64,000 nt of DNA, from the NCBI GenBank assembly GCA_016215405.1, contig JACRJQ010000005.1, positions 11,560 through 75,559 of the forward strand, read 5' to 3'. Of the stretch, positions 5,934 through 61,303 are shown piece by piece. The notes beneath the pieces were generated by a model. The model worked only from the letters and a program-made list of their open reading frames with translations, was not told the DNA's origin and did no database searches. Source of the stretch: Candidatus Tayloriibacteriota bacterium. Lineage in GTDB: Bacteria > Patescibacteriota > Minisyncoccia > Phycocordibacterales > UBA6065. How positions within the stretch are numbered: the stretch's first letter is position 1; the number at the start of each line of letters is the position of its first letter. The translations under genes were made by a program, and so were the position numbers.

Positions 5934-5960
5934 GCGGATATCCGTCCGATCGGTTTTAGA

Positions 5961-6000
5961 CCATGCAAAAACACTGGCTTAAGGCCAGTGTTTTTGCATG
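5961..6000. terminator. Long perfect hairpin (17-18 bp stem) CCATGCAAAAACACTGGC-TTAAG-GCCAGTGTTTTTGCATGG
   Basis: Seen directly; lies between the convergent glutaredoxin gene (+) and tRNA-Arg (-), abutting the tRNA 3' CCA. Confidence 0.6.
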
Positions 6001-6075
6001 GTGCCCTCAGAAGGAATCGAACCTACATCTCATCCTTAGGACGGATTTGCTCTATCCATTGAGCTATGAGGGCGC
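5999..6075 (-). tRNA. tRNA-Arg (anticodon CCU, tentative) with encoded CCA
   Basis: Minus-strand cloverleaf GCCCTCA..D-arm GCTC/GAGC..anticodon arm AATCC-GTCCTAA-GGATG..T-loop TTCGATT..TGAGGGC-A-CCA; one stem mismatch, so anticodon assignment is moderate. Confidence 0.55.
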
Positions 6076-6152: not shown

Positions 6153-6587
6153 ATGACAGGACAGATCAAAAGGGTCTTGTTTCTCGCCGCTCTGGTATCG
6201 TTCGCAGCGATCGCCGTGTTCGGCGGATGGGATATCGTCGTATCGCAGGGCTTGGATATGCCTGGCTGTCTCGCGACGTCGCTTAACGGCTTTGATTGCC
6301 CGAGCGTGCCCGGCACTTTAGGCTTCCTCAATTTCCATATAAAGCCCCTCGCCGATTTCTCTTCGGGAGCCTTCAGCGCGGCGATATCCGCGCTCTCCGC
6401 CCTCGCGCTCCTGGCTGTGGCCGTCTGTTTCGCGTCGGCGCCCTCGAGGCTCGCCGCTATCGAGGAGGGCGCGCCTGCCGCCGCGGCGCTTACGACCGAG
6501 AGCGGCTTCACTCCTCTTCAAAAGTCGGTCTCTGTGCGATGGCTCGCGCTTTTCGTTAACAGCCCGGCAGACATACAGGGCGCCTAG
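6153..6587 (+). CDS. Hypothetical membrane protein (2 TM, Cys-containing loop)
   Basis: 144 aa; N-terminal TM, CLATSLNGFDCP loop, second TM; coding-like codon usage; sits upstream of ccdA in a thiol-disulfide gene cluster. Confidence 0.4.
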   Translation: MTGQIKRVLFLAALVSFAAIAVFGGWDIVVSQGLDMPGCLATSLNGFDCPSVPGTLGFLNFHIKPLADFSSGAFSAAISALSALALLAVAVCFASAPSRLAAIEEGAPAAAALTTESGFTPLQKSVSVRWLALFVNSPADIQGA

Positions 6588-9797: not shown

Positions 9798-10439
9798 ATG
9801 GAACCGCTCCCTGGAAAGCTCATACTCGTCCGCCATCACGAATCGGAATGGAATAAGGCGGGCCTGTGGACGGGCGTGCGCGACAGGCACCTGACCGACT
9901 ACGGCTTTCAAAAATCGGCAGATATGGGTTTCCTTTTGAGGGACGTAAAGATCGGAAAGGCCTTCTCTTCCATGCAGGTCAGGGCTATAGAGACCCTGTC
10001 GTCCATGCTCGAGGCAATGGGGCAGTATAGGGTCGATATAGAGCATTCGAAGACCTTAAACGAGCGCGATTACGGCGAATATACGGGCAAGAGCAAATGG
10101 GACATGCAGAAGCTCGTGGGCGAGGAGACATGGAACAAGATACGCCGCGAATGGGACTATCCTGTGCCCGGAGGCGAGACGCTCAAGATGGTCTATGAGC
10201 GCGCCGTCCCGTTCTATCTCGAGAAGATATTGCCCGACGTGCGCCTCGGGACGAACGTGCTCGTGGTCGCTCACGGCAATTCGTGCCGCGCGCTCATAAA
10301 ATACATCGAGAGCGTCTCGGACGAGGGCGTATCGAAGGTCGAGATGCCCTTCGGCGGCATCCTCATCTACTCTCTAAACGAGAAGGGCCGCATGGTATCG
10401 AAGTCAGAGAGGCTCATAGAATCCCACGTAAACGCATGA
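9798..10439 (+). CDS. gpmA: 2,3-bisphosphoglycerate-dependent phosphoglycerate mutase
   Basis: Histidine phosphatase motif LVRHHESEWN, second His in VAHGNS; 213 aa. Confidence 0.85.
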   Translation: MEPLPGKLILVRHHESEWNKAGLWTGVRDRHLTDYGFQKSADMGFLLRDVKIGKAFSSMQVRAIETLSSMLEAMGQYRVDIEHSKTLNERDYGEYTGKSKWDMQKLVGEETWNKIRREWDYPVPGGETLKMVYERAVPFYLEKILPDVRLGTNVLVVAHGNSCRALIKYIESVSDEGVSKVEMPFGGILIYSLNEKGRMVSKSERLIESHVNA

Positions 10440-14903: not shown

Positions 14904-15410
14904 ATGAAAAACAATTCGCGCATAGCTCTAAGCATCGCCTTCGCGCTTATCCTGTTCTCGACAGGAGCGGTCTTTTCGCGCCGCCCGCTCGTCGCCGAAG
15001 CGCCCGAGGCGCCGTCCTCCTCAATCCAGGCGAGGGAGGTCGTAGCGCCGTCTCCTCGCGAGGAGGCCCCTCTTCTGAAAAAGGCAGGGACTAGGACAGC
15101 GGAGGACGTCGCGCATGGAGAGGCTATGAGCGTATCGGTTTCGATAGGAGGCGAGGCTCGAGAAGCTCTGGTGCCGATCGGCGCCACCGCGTACGACGCC
15201 ATGGCGCTCCTCAGAAAGCAGGGAAAGGCGGAATACGAGTCGACATACTATCCGTCCCTCGGCCACTTCATAAAGGAGATCGCGGGGAAGGAGAACGAAG
15301 GAGGGTATTATTGGACGCTCTATATCAACGGAGAGTATTCGGAGAGAGGAGCTTCGTCCGCCGTCCTTACCGACGGCGATAAGGTCGAATGGAGATATGA
15401 GAATAAATAA
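14904..15410 (+). CDS. DUF4430-domain secreted protein (predicted cobalamin-binding, transcobalamin beta-domain-like)
   Basis: Signal/TM anchor then DUF4430 signature YYWTLYINGEYSERGASSAVLTDGDKVEWRY. Confidence 0.65.
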   Translation: MKNNSRIALSIAFALILFSTGAVFSRRPLVAEAPEAPSSSIQAREVVAPSPREEAPLLKKAGTRTAEDVAHGEAMSVSVSIGGEAREALVPIGATAYDAMALLRKQGKAEYESTYYPSLGHFIKEIAGKENEGGYYWTLYINGEYSERGASSAVLTDGDKVEWRYENK

Positions 15411-18317: not shown

Positions 18318-18490
18318 CAAAGAAAAAAGCGCCTCAGGGCGTCTTTTTCTTTGTGCTGGGAGGAAGCGCGGGGCGCTTCCTCCCAGGTTCGAAGCCCGAT
18401 TGAGCATCTTTTCGAGCCGTACTCGGCGAAGGAAAAATCCAATCGCGGGTACTGACCCCGTGGGGGTCGAGTCCTGGGTCCAAGCACAAC
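18318..18490 (+). repeat. tRNA-trailing element (Phe copy): terminator + GC hairpin + conserved core + 17-nt direct repeat of tRNA-Phe 3' end
   Basis: CCTGGGTCCAAGCACAA at 18304-18320 repeated at 18474-18490; core GGTTCGAAGCCCGATTGAGCATCTTTTCGAGC...GGGTACTGACC homologous to cores after tRNA-Glu and tRNA-Ser. Confidence 0.75.
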
Positions 18491-24264: not shown

Positions 24265-24329
24265 GGAGTAGTTCTAACATAAAGGCAATAGTTGGTCACG
24301 GATCTGGGGGCCTTTCCCTGGGGGCAGGG

Positions 24330-24485
24330 AGTTTTTTATGGATGGTCACGGGTCTCTTTGTGGTCAAAAGTCTTTTCTCGCCGTCGCTCGAAAAGCTTTC
24401 GACCCTGGCTCGCGGCCTCGCGAAGCGTTCGGCACCGCTCCGCCTCGCACAAGCTAAAATCCTGCCACAGGCAGGATTTTAGCTT
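24330..24485. repeat. Repeat-rich spacer: ~40-nt imperfect direct repeat (also at 24561-24600) plus 17-bp perfect hairpin CAAGCTAAAATCCTGCC-ACAG-GGCAGGATTTTAGCTTG
   Basis: Seen directly; CCTCGCGGCC(T/G)CGCGAA(G/A)CGTTCGGCA(C/T)CGCTCC occurs twice; hairpin at 24448-24486 abuts a tRNA-Val 3'-end fragment. Confidence 0.6.
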
Positions 24486-24663
24486 GTGCGCGGTATAGGA
24501 ATCTTTCCCTCGACTCGGATTCGCTCGTCAGCGAATCCGGTCTGGTCACCGCCTCGCGGCCGCGCGAAACGTTCGGCATCGCTCCGGCGTTCAAGTCCTA
24601 TACGCATATCTTCAAGACATGCTACCGCGCACGTAAAAACCGGCAGTCGCCGGTTTCTTTCTG
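24486..24663 (-). repeat. tRNA-trailing element (Val copy) bounded by duplicated tRNA-Val 3' end
   Basis: TGTGCGCGGTATAGGA (plus-strand view) at 24486-24501 and again at 24663-24678 (the real tRNA end); contains terminator AAACCGGCGACTGCCGGTTTTT and an inverted T-arm fragment GTTCAAGTCCTATAC. Confidence 0.7.
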
Positions 24664-24778: not shown

Positions 24779-25132
24779 CTACTTTTTAGGCAGCGGAGGC
24801 GCCGGCGGGGGAGCGTCCTTGGGCTTGTCGAGCACCGTCGAGAGCCTCTTGATGACGAAGTAGACGACCGCGGCGAGGATGAAGAAATTGATGAGGAGCG
24901 AGAGCGTCTTGCCGTAGGCGATAGTCGAGCCGTTTATGGTGACGCCGAGATTCGCGAGGTCGGTAAACCGCGCGAACGCGAGGCCGATGATGGGGTTTAT
25001 CACGTCGTTCACGAACGAGCCGACGAGATCGGAGGTGGCCTTGCCGAGGATGAATCCCGTCGCGAAGCCTACGACTCCCTGTGTCCTTATAAAATGTATG
25101 AATCCGGCAAGCTGTTCTTTGAGCATGTACAT
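24779..25132 (-). CDS. mscL: Large-conductance mechanosensitive channel MscL
   Basis: FIRTQGVVGFATGFILGKA...VINPIIG TM1 signature, 117 aa with Pro-rich C-terminus. Confidence 0.85.
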   Translation of the reverse strand: MYMLKEQLAGFIHFIRTQGVVGFATGFILGKATSDLVGSFVNDVINPIIGLAFARFTDLANLGVTINGSTIAYGKTLSLLINFFILAAVVYFVIKRLSTVLDKPKDAPPPAPPLPKK

Positions 25133-25184
25133 ATATTACTACGGATCATCGCCTATATGGGAAACATGTGATTCGGTTCGGGCG

Positions 25185-25341
25185 GGGAGATTCGACCTCT
25201 ACTCGGTCAGTACCCGTTTCCCATTTTCTCGGATGGAAGTCCTCGAAAATACGGGAGAACGGCTTCGAATCTCCCACGCCGTGCCGCTGGCACGGCTCCT
25301 CTCCGCAAAATCAAAACGCGCCGATAGCGCGTTGGATTTTG
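25185..25341 (-). repeat. tRNA-trailing element (Ser copy) with degenerate tRNA-like fragments
   Basis: Minus-sense: terminator AACGCGC-TATCG-GCGCGTT+T-run, hairpin GGAGCCGTGCCAGCGGCACGGC, core GATTCGAAGCCGTTCTCCCGTATTTTCGAGG...GGGTACTGACC, then partial copy (TCGAATCTCCCC) of tRNA-Ser T-loop/3' stem. Confidence 0.65.
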
Positions 25342-25428
25342 CGGAGAGGGGGAGATTCGAACTCCCGAGGAGCTTGCGCCCCTGCCGGTTTTCGAAACCG
25401 GTGCATTCGACCACTCTGCCACCTCTCC
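25342..25428 (-). tRNA. tRNA-Ser (CGA), type II with long variable arm
   Basis: GGAGAGGTGGCAGAGTGGTCGAATGCACCGGTTTCGAAAACCGG..variable arm..GGGAGTTCGAATCTCCC..CCTCTCC-G. Confidence 0.85.
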
Positions 25429-25506
25429 GTGGGAATCTCAAATGCCCGAATATCCTATCACTTTTTGCCAAAATGGCAAAAAAAAGCTATATTTTGGCGG
25501 TTCGCC

Positions 25507-25578
25507 GGCCCTATCGTCTAATGGTTAGGACAGGAGCTTTTCAAGCTCTAAATCGGGGTTCGATTCCCCGTAGGGTCA
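25507..25578 (+). tRNA. tRNA-Glu (UUC)
   Basis: GGCCCTATCGTCTAATGGTTAGGAC..anticodon loop TTTTCAA..CGGGGTTCGATTCCCCG..TAGGGTC-A. Confidence 0.9.
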
Positions 25579-25750
25579 CAACGCGGCCGCCGAGAGGCGG
25601 CTTTTGCGTTGTGACCCTAAGTAGCGCCGGGGCGCGCTACGTCGGGGAATCGAAGCCTGTTTGAGCAAACTTTCGAGCTTTCTCAAGCGATGAAAGTTTC
25701 CAAACAGGGTACTGGTCATGTAAGGACCGATATTCCCCGTAGGGTCACAC
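25579..25750 (+). repeat. tRNA-trailing element (Glu copy) ending in 17-nt direct repeat of tRNA-Glu 3' end
   Basis: TTCCCCGTAGGGTCACA at 25564-25580 and 25733-25749; terminator GGCCGCC-GAGA-GGCGGC-TTTT, hairpin TAGCGCCGGGGCGCGCTA, core GAATCGAAGCCTGTTTGAGCAAACTTTCGAGC...GGGTACTGG homologous to Phe/Ser copies. Confidence 0.75.
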
Positions 25751-25784
25751 CAGGTGTTTTTTCGCTTCTCCAGAATCCTCCCAC

Positions 25785-25816
25785 AAAAAACCGCCCTCTT
25801 TTTCGGAGGGCGGTTC
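25785..25816. terminator. Bidirectional terminator AAAAAACCGCCCTC-TTTTTCGG-AGGGCGGTT
   Basis: GC hairpin flanked by A-run and T-run; downstream of minus-strand gene 25830-26603. Confidence 0.7.
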
Positions 25817-60721: not shown

Positions 60722-60926
60722 GGAGCTCCCGCCCAAAACGAAAACAGCTCGTCGCTGTTTTGTTTGTGGGCGAGGGGGGGACTTGAATCTTACAGATTCG
60801 GTACAGGTTTTCTGTTTCCTCGGTTGGAAACCCTCGTAAACATAGAAAACCTTTTCGCGTCCCCCATGCAGAGCCACAGGCTCTGCTCTCGCCCAAAACG
60901 AAAACAGCTCATCGCTGTTTTGTTTG
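60722..60926 (-). repeat. tRNA-trailing element (Leu-UAG copy) incl. ~55-nt direct repeat of tRNA-Leu 3' end plus its terminator
   Basis: CGCCCAAAACGAAAACAGCTC(G/A)TCGCTGTTTTGTTTGTGGGCGAGGGGGG at 60722-60777 and 60889-60940 (167-bp period); hairpins AACAGC-GATGA-GCTGTT and GCAGAGCC-TGT-GGCTCTGC. Confidence 0.75.
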
Positions 60927-61007
60927 TGGGCGAGGGGGGACTTGAACCCCCATGCCTTGCGGCGCTAGCTCCTAAGGCTAGTGTGTCTGCCATTTCACCA
61001 CCCGCCC
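60927..61007 (-). tRNA. tRNA-Leu (UAG), type II
   Basis: GGGCGGGTGGTGAAATGGCAGACAC..anticodon arm CTAGC-CTTAGGA-GCTAG..variable arm..GGGGGTTCAAGTCCCCC..CTCGCCC-A. Confidence 0.85.
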
Positions 61008-61094
61008 GACGTAGAGAGCTTAGCATAAACTACGGCGGAGGGAATCTCGGCGTACAGCCGAAGCCTGATCGGCGCGAGCGCGCAGCTCGATTGA

Positions 61095-61303
61095 ATCTCG
61101 ATCCCTACACATACGTCCAGCGGACATGCGCGTAGGGATATCTCTCTCGATTTAAATTTTCTCGTCAGAAAATTTAGTCTGGGTACCGCCTCGCTCCCGC
61201 CGGAGACCGGCAGGCCCCGTTTCGGCGTTCGATCCCTACACGCAAGCCTAACAGGCTTGCTAGGGCGGGCACGAAAAAACGGCCGGAGCCGTTTTTTCTC
61301 GTG
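61095..61303 (-). repeat. tRNA-trailing element (Lys copy) with direct and inverted partial copies of tRNA-Lys T-arm/3' end
   Basis: Minus-sense: terminator AAAAAACGGCTCCGGCCGTTTTTT, hairpin GCAAGCC-TGTT-AGGCTTGC, T-arm-like GTGTAGGGATCGAACGCC, GGTACCCAGAC, hairpin AAATTTTCT-GACG-AGAAAATTT, partial copies ATCCCTAC (61127-61140, 61098-61110). Confidence 0.6.

Follow-up and report, generated by a model that had tools for sequence, protein, structure and literature searches.

In the window (the whole 64,000-nt stretch of a Candidatus Tayloriibacteriota contig that was analyzed), the tRNA-Ser(cga) and tRNA-Glu(ttc) genes both have a homologous element behind them on the strand of the gene, and the same family is also found behind tRNA-Phe. 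Each element carries the 3' third of its own tRNA twice, as a reverse complement and as a direct copy. The preliminary description of this DNA recognized the homology of the trailing elements but overlooked this defining feature. The homology extends far beyond the window: there is one element family, and each member trails its tRNA on the tRNA strand. The elements are here called tRNA-tail modules, and they apparently constitute a previously uncatalogued family of the Patescibacteria (CPR).

A module is non-coding and ~140-170 nt in size, with a core of ~95 nt. Its parts follow one another in a fixed order: the tRNA, an intrinsic-terminator hairpin, an antisense segment (S') split by a GC-rich hairpin (hairpin B), a three-way-junction core, and a second repeat (DR2). 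S' is the reverse complement of positions ~54-76 of the module's own tRNA plus the trailer, with hairpin B inserted, and DR2 is a sense copy of tRNA positions ~56-76. The antisense copies of the tRNA 3' end went unmentioned in the preliminary description. The core consists of a junction strand GAA(G), a hairpin (H2) with a k-turn or tandem G.A, the strand GUACUG, and a 5-bp hairpin (H3) with a GUA loop. The parts at the two loci, followed by the other modules in the window, are:

25184..25195, minus strand: DR2 of the Ser module, T part only (TCGAATCTCCCC), a direct repeat
25195..25213, minus strand: Ser junction strand GUACUG and H3 hairpin (ACC-GAGUAGA-GGU)
25214..25263, minus strand: Ser long hairpin H2, with a symmetric tandem G.A internal loop (type b core)
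25264..25275, minus strand: Ser S'(T) GGGAGATTCGAA, the exact reverse complement of TTCGAATCTCCC; inverted repeat
25278..25296, minus strand: Ser hairpin B (GCCGUGCC-AGC-GGCACGGC)
25298..25306, minus strand: Ser S'acc GCGGAGAGG, the exact reverse complement of the acceptor 3' strand CCTCTCCGC
25315..25333, minus strand: Ser terminator-like hairpin directly 3' of the tRNA (terminator scan and inverted repeat)
25341..25428, minus strand: tRNA-Ser(cga) (ARAGORN; Rfam, 58.6 bits)
25452..25493, both strands: divergent promoter-like sites, TTGCCA-17-TATATT on the plus strand and TTGCCA-16-TAGGAT on the minus strand
25507..25579, plus strand: tRNA-Glu(ttc) (ARAGORN; Rfam, 65.5 bits), whose final 18 nt (25563-25580) are copy 1 of the direct repeat (DR1)
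25571..25619, plus strand: Glu long palindrome, in which the acceptor 3' strand and trailer pair with their complement (inverted repeat, 14/14 complementary)
25585-25602 and a T run, plus strand: Glu terminator-like hairpin inside the palindrome (terminator scan)
25610..25619, plus strand: Glu S'acc TGTGACCCTA, the exact reverse complement of the acceptor 3' strand, discriminator, and CA
25621..25640, plus strand: Glu hairpin B, GC-rich, which splits the antisense segment at the T-stem/acceptor boundary
25643..25654, plus strand: Glu S'(T) CGGGGAATCGAA, the exact reverse complement of the T-loop and T-stem 3' strand (TTCGATTCCCCG); inverted repeat and 5' strand of helix H1
25655..25708, plus strand: Glu long hairpin H2, with a k-turn-like internal loop (CUUUC-GA-GCUU ... 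AAGC-GAU-GA-AAG)
25709..25728, plus strand: Glu junction strand GUACUG, then H3 hairpin (GGUC-AUGUAAG-GACC)
25732..25749, plus strand: Glu DR2, the second copy of the tRNA 3' end, 100% identical; 3' strand of H1 and of the outer acceptor-like helix
18319..18490, plus strand: module behind tRNA-Phe(gaa), with a type a core and a 16-nt direct repeat
24300..24662, minus strand: two tandem modules behind tRNA-Val(gac), with core type 'c', unlike the Ser and Glu cores
60725..60925, minus strand: module behind tRNA-Leu(tag), with core type 'd' and a 42.5-bit match to model R1
61040..61302, minus strand: type c module and a partial second unit behind tRNA-Lys(ctt)

The tRNA-Ser and tRNA-Glu genes are divergent, with the promoter-like sites in the gap between them, and a promoter scan of the locus revealed no such site ahead of the Ser or the Glu element. 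A GC-rich hairpin with a T run, the signature of an intrinsic terminator, stands right after each tRNA (25585-25602 on the plus strand; 25333-25315 on the minus strand). The Glu direct repeat had been described as 17 nt long with a spacing of 169. The spacing is correct, but the exact repeat (ATTCCCCGTAGGGTCACA, at 25563-25580 and 25732-25749) is one base longer, 18 nt; by our own estimate, the chance expectation of an 18-mer repeat within 1.1 kb is ~1e-5. The copies of the tRNA 3' end that flank the insert measure 18/18 nt for Glu, 12 nt for Ser, and 16 nt for Phe. The partial repeat of the Ser copy, TCGAATCTCCCC only (25184-25195), was also absent from the preliminary description; the acceptor part of its DR2 has diverged (GCCCGAACC vs CTCTCCGC). 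The Ser, Glu, and Phe cores quoted there are present as written. Their shared pattern, TCGAAGCC-N40-70-GGGTACTG, occurs at exactly three sites in the window (18389-18454 on the plus strand, 25208-25268 on the minus strand, and 25650-25714 on the plus strand) and in none of 100 shuffles. In all, modules stand behind 6 of the 10 tRNAs of the window, and the copies 3' of tRNA-Val, Lys, and Leu(tag) are additions to the earlier account. The repeat of the tRNA-Leu(tag) module is ~62 nt long and takes in the terminator.

Could the trailing elements simply be further tRNA genes, which would explain their similarity? A tRNA or tRNA pseudogene was taken to be an ARAGORN cloverleaf or a match of at least 29 bits to the Rfam model RF00005. 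Neither ARAGORN nor RF00005, even at E <= 10, called one in 25165-25340 or 25580-25750, and the claim of similarity stands. The 'pseudo-tRNA' miscalls that had been predicted for the Ser copy did not occur with ARAGORN or the Rfam tRNA model. Among Rfam 15 families, including ribozymes, T-box, Y RNA, tmRNA, group I/II introns, and riboswitches, only tRNAs reached the gathering threshold; the window was scanned at that threshold and 25100-25800 at E <= 10. A full-text literature search found the module undescribed in the papers retrieved.

The module appears to fold as RNA. On the tRNA-sense strand, S'(T) and the T part of DR2 are shown or predicted to form a closing helix (H1). Likewise, S'acc and the acceptor part of DR2 are shown or predicted to form an outer helix where DR2 is intact. 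The resulting fold is, again as shown or predicted, a copy of the tRNA acceptor/T arm in which the junction replaces the T-loop. The RNAalifold consensus was a three-way junction with compensatory changes in 18 of 26 pairs. A model-based alignment gave changes on both sides in 22 of the 26 pairs, 92.1% paired cells compared to 68.7% in shuffled controls, and a covariation score of 0.618 compared to 0.200 in shuffled and at most 0.18 in slid controls, the alignment being one that was itself fitted to the structure model. In other words, compensatory changes exceed those in shuffled and slid controls, which is the generic criterion for a conserved structured RNA. Furthermore, the folding-energy z-scores were -6.1 for Glu and -4.25 for Ser. 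The possibility that the RNA is made from the opposite strand was rejected, because the sense strand folds more stably than the antisense strand in 47 of 49 copies and G.U pairs would turn into A.C. The preliminary description had proposed a shared CGGGTACTGACCCG stem-loop. It is not a conserved hairpin: its GGG is paired at the base of H2, and the sequence 3' of GTACTG folds into the separate covarying hairpin H3; covariation supports these other helices. At the sequence level, a k-turn pattern is found in 32 of 49 cores, including Glu (GC-GAU-GA-AAG) and Phe, where a kink-turn was defined by a C-stem, a 3-nt bulge, tandem G.A/A.G, and an NC-stem (Kt-7-like C-GAA-GA-A opposite C-GA-G). The Ser core displays a symmetric tandem G.A loop in place of the k-turn.

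Pattern scans identified ~60 further copies, almost all of them in Patescibacteria (CPR) genomes, and every locus comes from a metagenome assembly. In the genome collection, 19 of 27 matches were true copies, and the remaining 8 correspond to the chance expectation. The hosts of the 19 were metagenome-reconstructed genomes of Saccharibacteria, Paceibacterota, and Lloyd-, Kaiser-, Nomura-, and Taylorbacteria, along with one labeled 'bacterium' and one labeled 'uncultured bacterium'. About 40 of 66 metagenome matches were true copies, and viral contigs yielded zero pattern matches. In both the genome-collection and metagenome scans the copies were tRNA-linked, lying 3' of a tRNA on the same strand, and 12 tRNA isotypes have a module behind them. 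At every locus the second repeat follows the first after ~130-210 nt or a multiple of that, there is no distant repeat copy, and no ORF fits in between. The genes downstream vary (MscL on the same strand, FGase convergent, TK on the same strand). A role as regulator of the downstream gene was rejected because these neighbors differ in identity and orientation.

Each module is matched to its cognate tRNA. The seven variable S' bases are the exact complement of the cognate tRNA in 30/39 copies and carry at most one mismatch in 35/39, whereas only 0.1% of non-cognate S'/tRNA pairings are exact. The S'acc 8-mer is exact in 14/39 copies. A 12-nt antisense match within 80 nt of the tRNA was found for 25 of 39 tRNAs (the first 19 genome-scan loci and the window).

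The module is also a cassette that is gained and lost, as is evident from empty orthologous sites, tandem arrays, different core types at orthologous loci, and near-identical cores within one genome. In the syntenic relatives L029 and L031, tRNA-Val abuts tsaD and tRNA-Phe lacks an element. In L030 an element is present on tRNA-Arg(cct), and the tRNA-Arg(cct) of the window is without one. The TsaD homologue nearest to that of the window genome is only 66% identical. Tandem arrays comprise three units in L022 and two in L008. The same kind of locus carries type b in L056 and type a in L069 and L090, which amounts to a cassette swap. Cores on different tRNAs of one genome are 97% identical in one pair (L006_Ser and L014_Gln) and 94% in another (L005_Gln and L020_Arg). 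The block of identity in these pairs is exactly TCGAAGCC through TCGA, the flanks being tRNA-specific, and TCGA borders the near-identical cores on both sides. L014 (Gln) retains a Ser-type S'acc remnant, which is a relic of transfer.

What, then, is the module? The reading that we favor, although with somewhat less than even confidence, is a protein-less, RNA-structured insertion cassette that lands at tRNA 3' ends and duplicates them. The cassette would land in or after the T-loop-to-3'-end segment of the tRNA gene. Duplication of the target segment would leave the tRNA intact and with its own terminator, and the arms would stay matched to the tRNA through DNA-level copying, the likely route being template switching in the quasi-palindromes of the terminator and the palindromic T-loop TTCGA(A). 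Transcription would reach the core only when it reads through from the tRNA promoter. A mature tRNA copied by reverse transcription is an unlikely source, since S' corresponds to the genomic ..ACA and trailer and not the CCA end. The conserved core fold suggests that the RNA does something, either for the spread of the cassette or for the cell. However, neither an enzyme nor an autonomous master copy was found, and no known mechanism copies a target both inverted and direct around a cassette. The copies of the window genome are only ~70% alike, indicating no recent burst there, and gene conversion alone could explain the within-genome near-identity. The closest relative of the Glu copy is a tRNA-Glu copy in a different genome (85%), a closeness that suits long vertical association or function as well as it suits mobility. 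In the window, terminators separate the tRNA from the element, whose transcription is putative. Covariation of an RNA containing G.U pairs, together with retention in streamlined genomes of ~1 Mb, favors a cellular function over pure selfishness.

A serious rival is a host-serving tRNA mimic or antisense RNA, encoded in cis as a functional part of the tRNA transcription unit, mostly inherited vertically and often lost; we regard it as possible but on the doubtful side. In one version, S' would be an antisense clamp or switch that acts on the precursor or 3' fragments of its own tRNA by exchanging S':tRNA and S':DR2 pairing. In another, the S' and DR2 helices would present the junction on an acceptor/T-arm scaffold as a decoy or processing substrate, with RNase P/Z, the CCA-adding enzyme, or a k-turn-binding protein as candidate partners. 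The junction and covarying helices are kept across distant CPR classes, and orphan copies whose tRNA is lost still retain H1. S'(T) is exact in 30/39 copies vs 16/39 for DR2(T), which points to a constraint that runs via the tRNA. The whole-transcript MFE comprises two alternative pairings. Saccharibacteria-type copies lack a terminator before the element and have one after DR2, placing the element inside the tRNA transcript. The Glu copies are orthologous between genomes, and in a streamlined genome more than half of the tRNAs carry a module. All of this suits a host function. On the other hand, close syntenic relatives do without the module at the same tRNAs, the acceptor parts frequently decay, several unrelated core types fill the same place, the terminator precedes the element in the window, and no partner protein or ligand has been assigned. 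A catalytic or guide RNA is a further rival, and we consider it a long shot: the junction would be a ribozyme or an RNA-protein scaffold, S' would dock on the 3' third of the cognate tRNA, and DR2 would be a bound product, spare part, or autoinhibitor, for example in cleavage/ligation or T-loop modification. The guide-hairpin-guide arrangement around the T-stem/acceptor junction resembles H/ACA pockets, H2 holds a k-turn, the invariant junction strands adjoin bases facing U54-C56, and cis-encoded guides in archaeal pre-tRNA introns provide a precedent. Yet Rfam returned zero matches to ribozyme or guide-RNA families, the strand order is unlike that of the hammerhead, the guide is already occupied in cis, and C/D or H/ACA proteins are not known from bacteria. 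An RNA-guided device specific for its own tRNA likewise seems unlikely: S' would dock the k-turn/junction core on the T-loop-to-3'-end segment of that tRNA or its precursor, DR2 would serve as spare or decoy, and the segment would be cleaved, ligated, modified, or sequestered by the core, either unaided or together with a k-turn-binding protein.

Two other origins were considered. The module could be a degenerate tandem tRNA duplicate whose D and anticodon arms collapsed to a hairpin, with an intron-like cassette in the T-loop, so that the 'antisense' segments are merely the 5' strands of stems. Duplication of tRNA genes in tandem is frequent, the parts stand in the order of a tRNA (S'acc, hairpin, T-stem 5' strand, insert, T-stem 3' strand, acceptor 3' strand), and the full-transcript MFE resembles a tRNA with a T-loop insertion. 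However, the complementarity of S' takes in T-loop bases 57-60, the discriminator, and the trailer (..ACA, AACGC), unlike that of tRNA 5' strands, and G2.U71 of tRNA-Glu is A-U in the element (GACCCTA vs GGCCCTA). Moreover, hairpin B bears no similarity to D or anticodon arms, and tRNA models score nothing there. The duplicate origin is thus largely contradicted, and we hold it to be improbable. Even less credible are attL/attR scars left by integrase-mediated integration of a phage or genomic island whose cargo has since been deleted. Direct repeats of the tRNA 3' end do flank the insert and pile up in tandem, and flank continuity with empty sites is possible, but the same ~95-nt core with the same boundaries stands behind 12 isotypes. 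None of the ~60 loci holds an integrase or cargo between the repeats, no cargo lies within 5 kb or more, viral contigs gave zero matches, and antisense copies and RNA covariation are foreign to att sites. These findings contradict the scar origin.

If true, the findings add an uncatalogued class of structured RNA behind many tRNA genes of the Patescibacteria, whose genomes are among the most streamlined known, and every module would be tailored, through a sense and an antisense copy, to the 3' third of the particular tRNA it follows. If the module is a protein-less mobile cassette whose arms are copied from the target, genetic elements would have a new way to move, and the annotation of tRNA flanks would be liable to errors. 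If it is a host RNA, tRNA processing, quality control, or mimicry would gain a new layer in a vast and uncultivated section of the bacterial tree. An RNA-guided device would amount to a system of tRNA surveillance or repair based on RNA or, just as well, to a mobile ribozyme that retargets itself; each would be a novelty among bacteria. The conserved junction, with its k-turn and invariant GAA and GUACUG, offers a compact target for biochemistry and structure work.

Several known systems resemble the module in part. The archaeal pre-tRNA-Trp intron encodes a box C/D guide, which has C/D boxes and needs fibrillarin/Nop5. Like the module, it is a k-turn RNA within a tRNA precursor and antisense to its own tRNA, but it is archaeal, lies in an intron rather than a trailer, and has defined C/D boxes with fibrillarin/Nop5. 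The only sub-threshold Rfam match was sX4, a Xanthomonas sRNA (RF02223; 41.7 bits vs a gathering threshold of 70, E 3e-7). Its model describes a tRNA-Ser and a trailer that folds back at its 3' end to pair with the T-arm region; the score comes mainly from the tRNA-Ser part, and the core is not shared. T-box leaders have a conserved structured core, a long hairpin that contains a k-turn, and short variable stretches that fit one cognate tRNA. However, they lie upstream of aminoacyl-tRNA synthetase genes and match the anticodon and NCCA, whereas the module lies downstream of tRNA genes, matches ~20 nt of the 3' third, and has neither a T-box match in Rfam nor a downstream expression platform. 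tRNA mimics (viral TLS, Y RNA/YrlA, the tRNA-like domain of tmRNA, and mascRNA) share with the module coaxial acceptor- and T-stem-like helices built from both RNA ends. The module differs in having a three-way junction for the T-loop and no free NCCA end; its helices copy the neighboring tRNA instead of being generic, and Rfam gave no match to these families.

Among ribozymes, a hammerhead requires a three-way junction with, 5' to 3', CUGANGA, then GAAA, then the cleavage-site strand. It was rejected because the module's junction strands, GAA(G), GUACUG(A), and 0-1 nt, run in the reversed order, CUGANGA is absent, and there is no Rfam match. Other small ribozymes do not fit the junction motifs and gave no matches. 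Group I introns in tRNAs of Patescibacteria interrupt the anticodon loop (position 35/36), exceed 200 nt, and match Intron_gpI (PMC13011429). They resemble the module in phylum, in being ORF-less, structured, tRNA-linked, and patchily distributed, and in having a guide-like segment complementary to the exon. In a group I intron one would expect a P3-P9 core containing a G-binding site, a host gene that is interrupted, and an Intron_gpI match; at the module the tRNA is uninterrupted, the core is ~95 nt, and Intron_gpI does not match, so this identity was rejected.

Analogies to IS200/IS605-type elements, IS110 bridge RNA, and TnpB guides were rejected, as the module has no ORF and its left-end hairpin sequences are not conserved. 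MITEs and REP-like repeats are likewise short, non-coding, hairpin-rich, multicopy, and placed after genes near terminators. Unlike theirs, the module's termini are copied from each target tRNA and are not conserved between copies, modules are strictly tRNA-linked and co-oriented, and G.U covariation favors one RNA strand. Derivation from a MITE or IS was rejected because there are no conserved terminal inverted repeats and no fixed short duplication, the duplicated length ranging from 8 to ~95 nt. Integrative elements that use tRNA 3' ends (phages, ICEs, and genomic islands) are also flanked by direct repeats, leave the tRNA intact, and generate tandem 3'-end repeats on re-insertion. In contrast to them, the module is only ~170 nt long, is without integrase or cargo, and contains the reverse complement of its target, and one covarying, RNA-like core serves at least 12 isotypes.

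The tRNA-Ser and tRNA-Glu genes form a divergent pair. Each is trailed, on its own strand, by a non-coding unit of ~140-170 nt (here called the module). The preliminary description had noticed these trailers, and its observation is real. It gives a first glimpse of a module family that is widespread.

Features of the window
25341-25428 (-): tRNA-Ser(cga), called by ARAGORN and the Rfam tRNA model
25452-25493: promoter-like sites, found only in the spacer between tRNA-Ser and tRNA-Glu
25507-25579 (+): tRNA-Glu(ttc), called by ARAGORN and the Rfam tRNA model
24300-24662 (-): modules with a type c core behind tRNA-Val
61040-61302 (-): module with a type c core behind tRNA-Lys
60725-60946 (-): tRNA-Leu(tag) module

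Behind tRNA-Glu, the previously noted direct repeat spans 18 nt without a mismatch (ATTCCCCGTAGGGTCACA, 25563-25580 and 25732-25749, spacing 169 nt). The homologous cores are also present: the pattern TCGAAGCC-N40-70-GGGTACTG has three matches, and no more, in the 64 kb (in the Phe, Ser, and Glu trailers) and none in shuffled sequence. An ordinary second tRNA gene does not account for the similarity, since tRNA finders were silent in both trailers even at E <= 10. The proposed CGGG/CCCG hairpin was not borne out and is absent from the covariation-supported helices.

Read on the strand of its own tRNA, the module has the same order of parts in the Ser and Glu trailers.

Parts of the module
Part 1: terminator-like hairpin, immediately 3' of the tRNA
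Part 2: S'acc, the 3' arm of the terminator/acceptor palindrome
Part 3: hairpin B, GC-rich
Part 4: S'(T), exact reverse complement of the T-loop and T-stem 3' strand
Part 5: conserved core, consisting of GCC, long hairpin H2, GGGUACUG, and short hairpin H3
Part 6: DR2, sense repeat of the tRNA 3' end, starting at ~position 56

The lower stem of the terminator hairpin extends as a perfect palindrome that runs on into the 3' strand of the acceptor stem; in Glu (inverted repeat I5) its arms are TAGGGTCACAACGC and GCGTTGTGACCCTA. In S'acc, the acceptor 3' strand, the discriminator, and the following genomic bases recur as an exact reverse complement. S'(T) takes in the tRNA-specific loop bases 59/60 (Glu CGGGG-AA-TCGAA, Ser GGGAG-AT-TCGAA, Phe CCCAG-GT-TCGAA). 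DR2 is complete in Glu (18/18 nt), and its T part alone remains in Ser (TCGAATCTCCCC). Because the S' segments copy ...ACA plus the trailer and not a CCA end, they derived from the gene or precursor and not from the mature tRNA.

How closely does a module match its own tRNA? The match was scored in 39 non-redundant copies, each next to a tRNA and together representing 12 isotypes.

Match of module segments to the cognate tRNA
Seven variable bases before TCGAA, exact complement: 30/39 (non-cognate pairings, 0.1%)
The same seven bases, at most 1 mismatch: 35/39
Acceptor-strand complement, exact 8-mer in the spacer: 14/39
Acceptor-strand complement 8-mer in the spacer, at most 1 mismatch: 21/39
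DR2 T part, at most 1 mismatch: 29/39
DR2 acceptor part, exact: 20/39

Furthermore, among all tRNAs in the window and the first 19 loci of the genome scan, 25/39 have a 12-nt antisense of their own T-loop and stem within 80 nt downstream.

With tRNA-Phe, Val, Lys, and Leu(tag), which are trailed by the same architecture, 6 of the 10 window tRNAs carry modules. Val and Lys share a core type different from that of Ser, Glu, and Phe, and Leu(tag) has a third. The Val/Lys core reads GAA-CGCC-GGAGCG..GCGAG-GCGG-U(G)ACC(C)AGAC and is followed by a hairpin in whose loop UGACGA is conserved; tRNA-Val has two tandem units, the second without the T-arm antisense. Related type c cores lie behind Val, Glu, and Arg(cct) in L030, a syntenic relative of the window. 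In Leu(tag), a segment of ~62 nt comprising the tRNA 3' end, terminator, and acceptor antisense is duplicated (60946-60885 and 60787-60725), and the duplication thus extends beyond the tRNA end alone. The module-less tRNA-Arg(cct) of the window is followed at 5955-6002 (-) by a terminator palindrome (ACCATGCAAAAACACTGGC / GCCAGTGTTTTTGCATGGT) that runs 4 nt into the encoded CCA end. This genome seems to favour terminator palindromes that extend into the 3' ends of its tRNAs.

Aligned together, 22 cores give the fold of a three-way junction. Helix H1 is S'(T) paired with DR2(T), which copies the tRNA T-stem and continues into the loop; H2 is the long hairpin; and H3 has 5 bp, with a GUA triloop in 34/49 copies. 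Invariant strands (GAA(G), GUACUG(A), and 0-1 nt) make up the junction. H2 shows a Kt-7-like k-turn pattern (C-NNN-GA-A opposite C-GA-G) in 32/49 copies including Glu and Phe, and a symmetric tandem G.A loop in 13/49 including Ser. A covariance model built from the alignment found 30 copies in the sequences examined, every one in a tRNA trailer. In an alignment fitted to the model, and with statistics that ignore phylogeny, 92.1% of cells were paired (68.7% when shuffled), 22/26 pairs changed on both sides, and the covariation score was 0.618 (0.200 in shuffles, <=0.18 in slid controls). Folding z-scores were -6.1 (Glu), -4.25 (Ser), and -4.7 (Phe). The structure is assigned to the sense strand, because this strand out-folds its complement in 47/49 copies (mean 4.5 kcal/mol) and its many G.U pairs would become A.C on the opposite strand.

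Small hairpin motifs recur around the modules. GCGAAGC, the sequence of a very stable mini-hairpin, or ACGAAGT is found, often repeated, in spacers (L010, L017, L019, L023, L024) and cores (L006, L022, L023) of loci from other genomes and metagenomes. In Saccharibacteria-type copies this motif takes the place of the terminator between tRNA and module. Five loci (L026, L056, L057, L069, L097) have an extra mini-hairpin (AAGCGTACTCGCG or AAGGGTACTCCCG) between H3 and DR2, which echoes the junction-strand GUACU motif.

Scanning one genome per species for the exact pattern gave 27 loci. Nineteen were true copies, in metagenome-reconstructed Saccharibacteria, Paceibacterota, and Lloyd-, Kaiser-, Nomura-, and Taylorbacteria, and in genomes labelled 'bacterium' (L026) and 'uncultured bacterium' (L021); the remaining 8 are the number that chance predicts. 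The same scan gave 66 loci in metagenomes, ~40 of them true, and none in viral contigs. The window genome is itself metagenome-derived, and its TsaD (NCBI MBI5134002.1) has nearest homologues 62-66% identical. Nearly all copies follow a co-oriented tRNA at a distance of 20-130 nt, and in the collections scanned the module is restricted to Patescibacteria.

L026 carries a LOOT RNA (Rfam RF03000; 197-316, +; 55.2 bits, gathering score 46.4) ~550 nt from a module. Upstream of an orphan module in L026 (~1040-1093, -) lies a ~55-nt tRNA-like mini-hairpin set (GGAAGGA...TCCTTCCA, GTTCGTAAG loop), on which ARAGORN and Rfam make no tRNA call and with which L097 shares an identical stretch. In L074 (- strand), a metagenomic CPR-like contig, an ARAGORN 'tRNA-Stop' (anticodon UUA) lies at most 82 nt upstream of a perfectly matched module starting at oriented position 965. 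It could be a suppressor or recoding tRNA.

Three syntenic relatives (L029, L030, L031; MscL-TsaD-aaRS-PrsW-HSP20(-TK), ~65% TsaD identity) were compared with the window. In L029 and L031, the tsaD start codon is abutted by a tRNA-Val that is the same as the window's in L029 and almost the same in L031, and tRNA-Phe is without the element. In other words, tRNA-Val and tRNA-Phe of these relatives are empty sites. L030 has modules on Val, Glu, and Arg(cct), the last without one in the window, and none on Ser or Phe. The L029 tRNA-Val and tRNA-Phe (9926-10001, 15322-15397) encode CCA and abut or overlap the tsaD and tdk start codons (CACCATG); tRNA and mRNA must be cut from one transcript.

The closest core pairs of the whole set come from one genome and different tRNAs: L006_Ser and L014_Gln (97% identical, one contig), and L005_Gln and L020_Arg (94%, one reconstructed genome). 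The identity block spans exactly TCGAAGCC to the TCGA 3' of H3, and the flanks are tRNA-specific. The Gln copy keeps a Ser-type S'acc remnant (GCGAGGAGAG, compared with GCGGAGGAGAG in L006). The L014 sequence points to a past transfer from tRNA-Ser to tRNA-Gln in which the T part was re-specified. The window Glu core has its nearest match (85%) behind a tRNA-Glu in another genome, and the window's three type a/b copies are only ~70% alike. Tandem arrays of 2 or 3 units, duplications taking in the terminator (Leu(tag) in the window, L016), and orphan copies with no detectable tRNA also occur; one orphan locus type has a type b core in L056 and type a in L069 and L090. Every copy examined lacks both an ORF and a distant second repeat. 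Downstream of one module in L007 (~6295-6400, -), three successive tRNA 3'-end copies (GAGTTCTCCTCTCCAG, GAGTCTCCTCTCCAGC, AAGTCTCCTCTCTAGC) are separated by AT-rich stretches, a pattern suggestive of several rounds of insertion and decay.

What has been observed comprises the anatomy, the match to the cognate tRNA, a conserved fold of the sense strand, confinement to Patescibacteria in the collections scanned, and gain and loss with exchange of cassettes. What is the module? The leading reading, quite possibly correct, is a cassette that encodes no protein and inserts into tRNA genes at the segment from the T-loop to the 3' end. Insertion would duplicate this segment, so that the tRNA and its own terminator stay functional. 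Templated copying at the DNA level would probably keep the arms complementary to the tRNA. It would act in two quasi-palindromes, one centred on the terminator and the other on the T-loop TCGA, which flanks the core at both ends. In the predicted whole-transcript MFE structure, which resembles a tRNA with a T-loop insertion, S' clamps the first 3'-third copy and DR2 completes the tRNA body; this predicted fold is consistent with a self-neutralising design. An RNA-level role is implied because the junction is conserved, and a host-serving tRNA mimic or antisense RNA is a possible, if rather doubtful, reading. The module resembles tRNA mimics in having acceptor/T-arm helices but differs from them in lacking a T-loop or NCCA end. 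The remaining probability is divided among att scars, a guide or ribozyme, and a degenerate duplicate of the tRNA.

The module was also set against described elements. No Rfam model, T-box RNAs included, reached threshold on the module; a hammerhead and a group I intron were rejected as well, and so was a MITE because its conserved termini are lacking. The group I intron of Patescibacteria tRNAs (PMC13011429) is a different element, which sits in the anticodon loop. No description of the family turned up in the non-subscription full-text literature searched. The Ser and Glu trailers are members of a widespread, apparently undescribed family with a putative role. Like T-box RNAs, the module has a conserved core, cognate-matched segments, and a k-turn. 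Like tRNA-targeting integrative elements, it duplicates its target and accretes in tandem, but unlike them it does so with neither integrase nor cargo.
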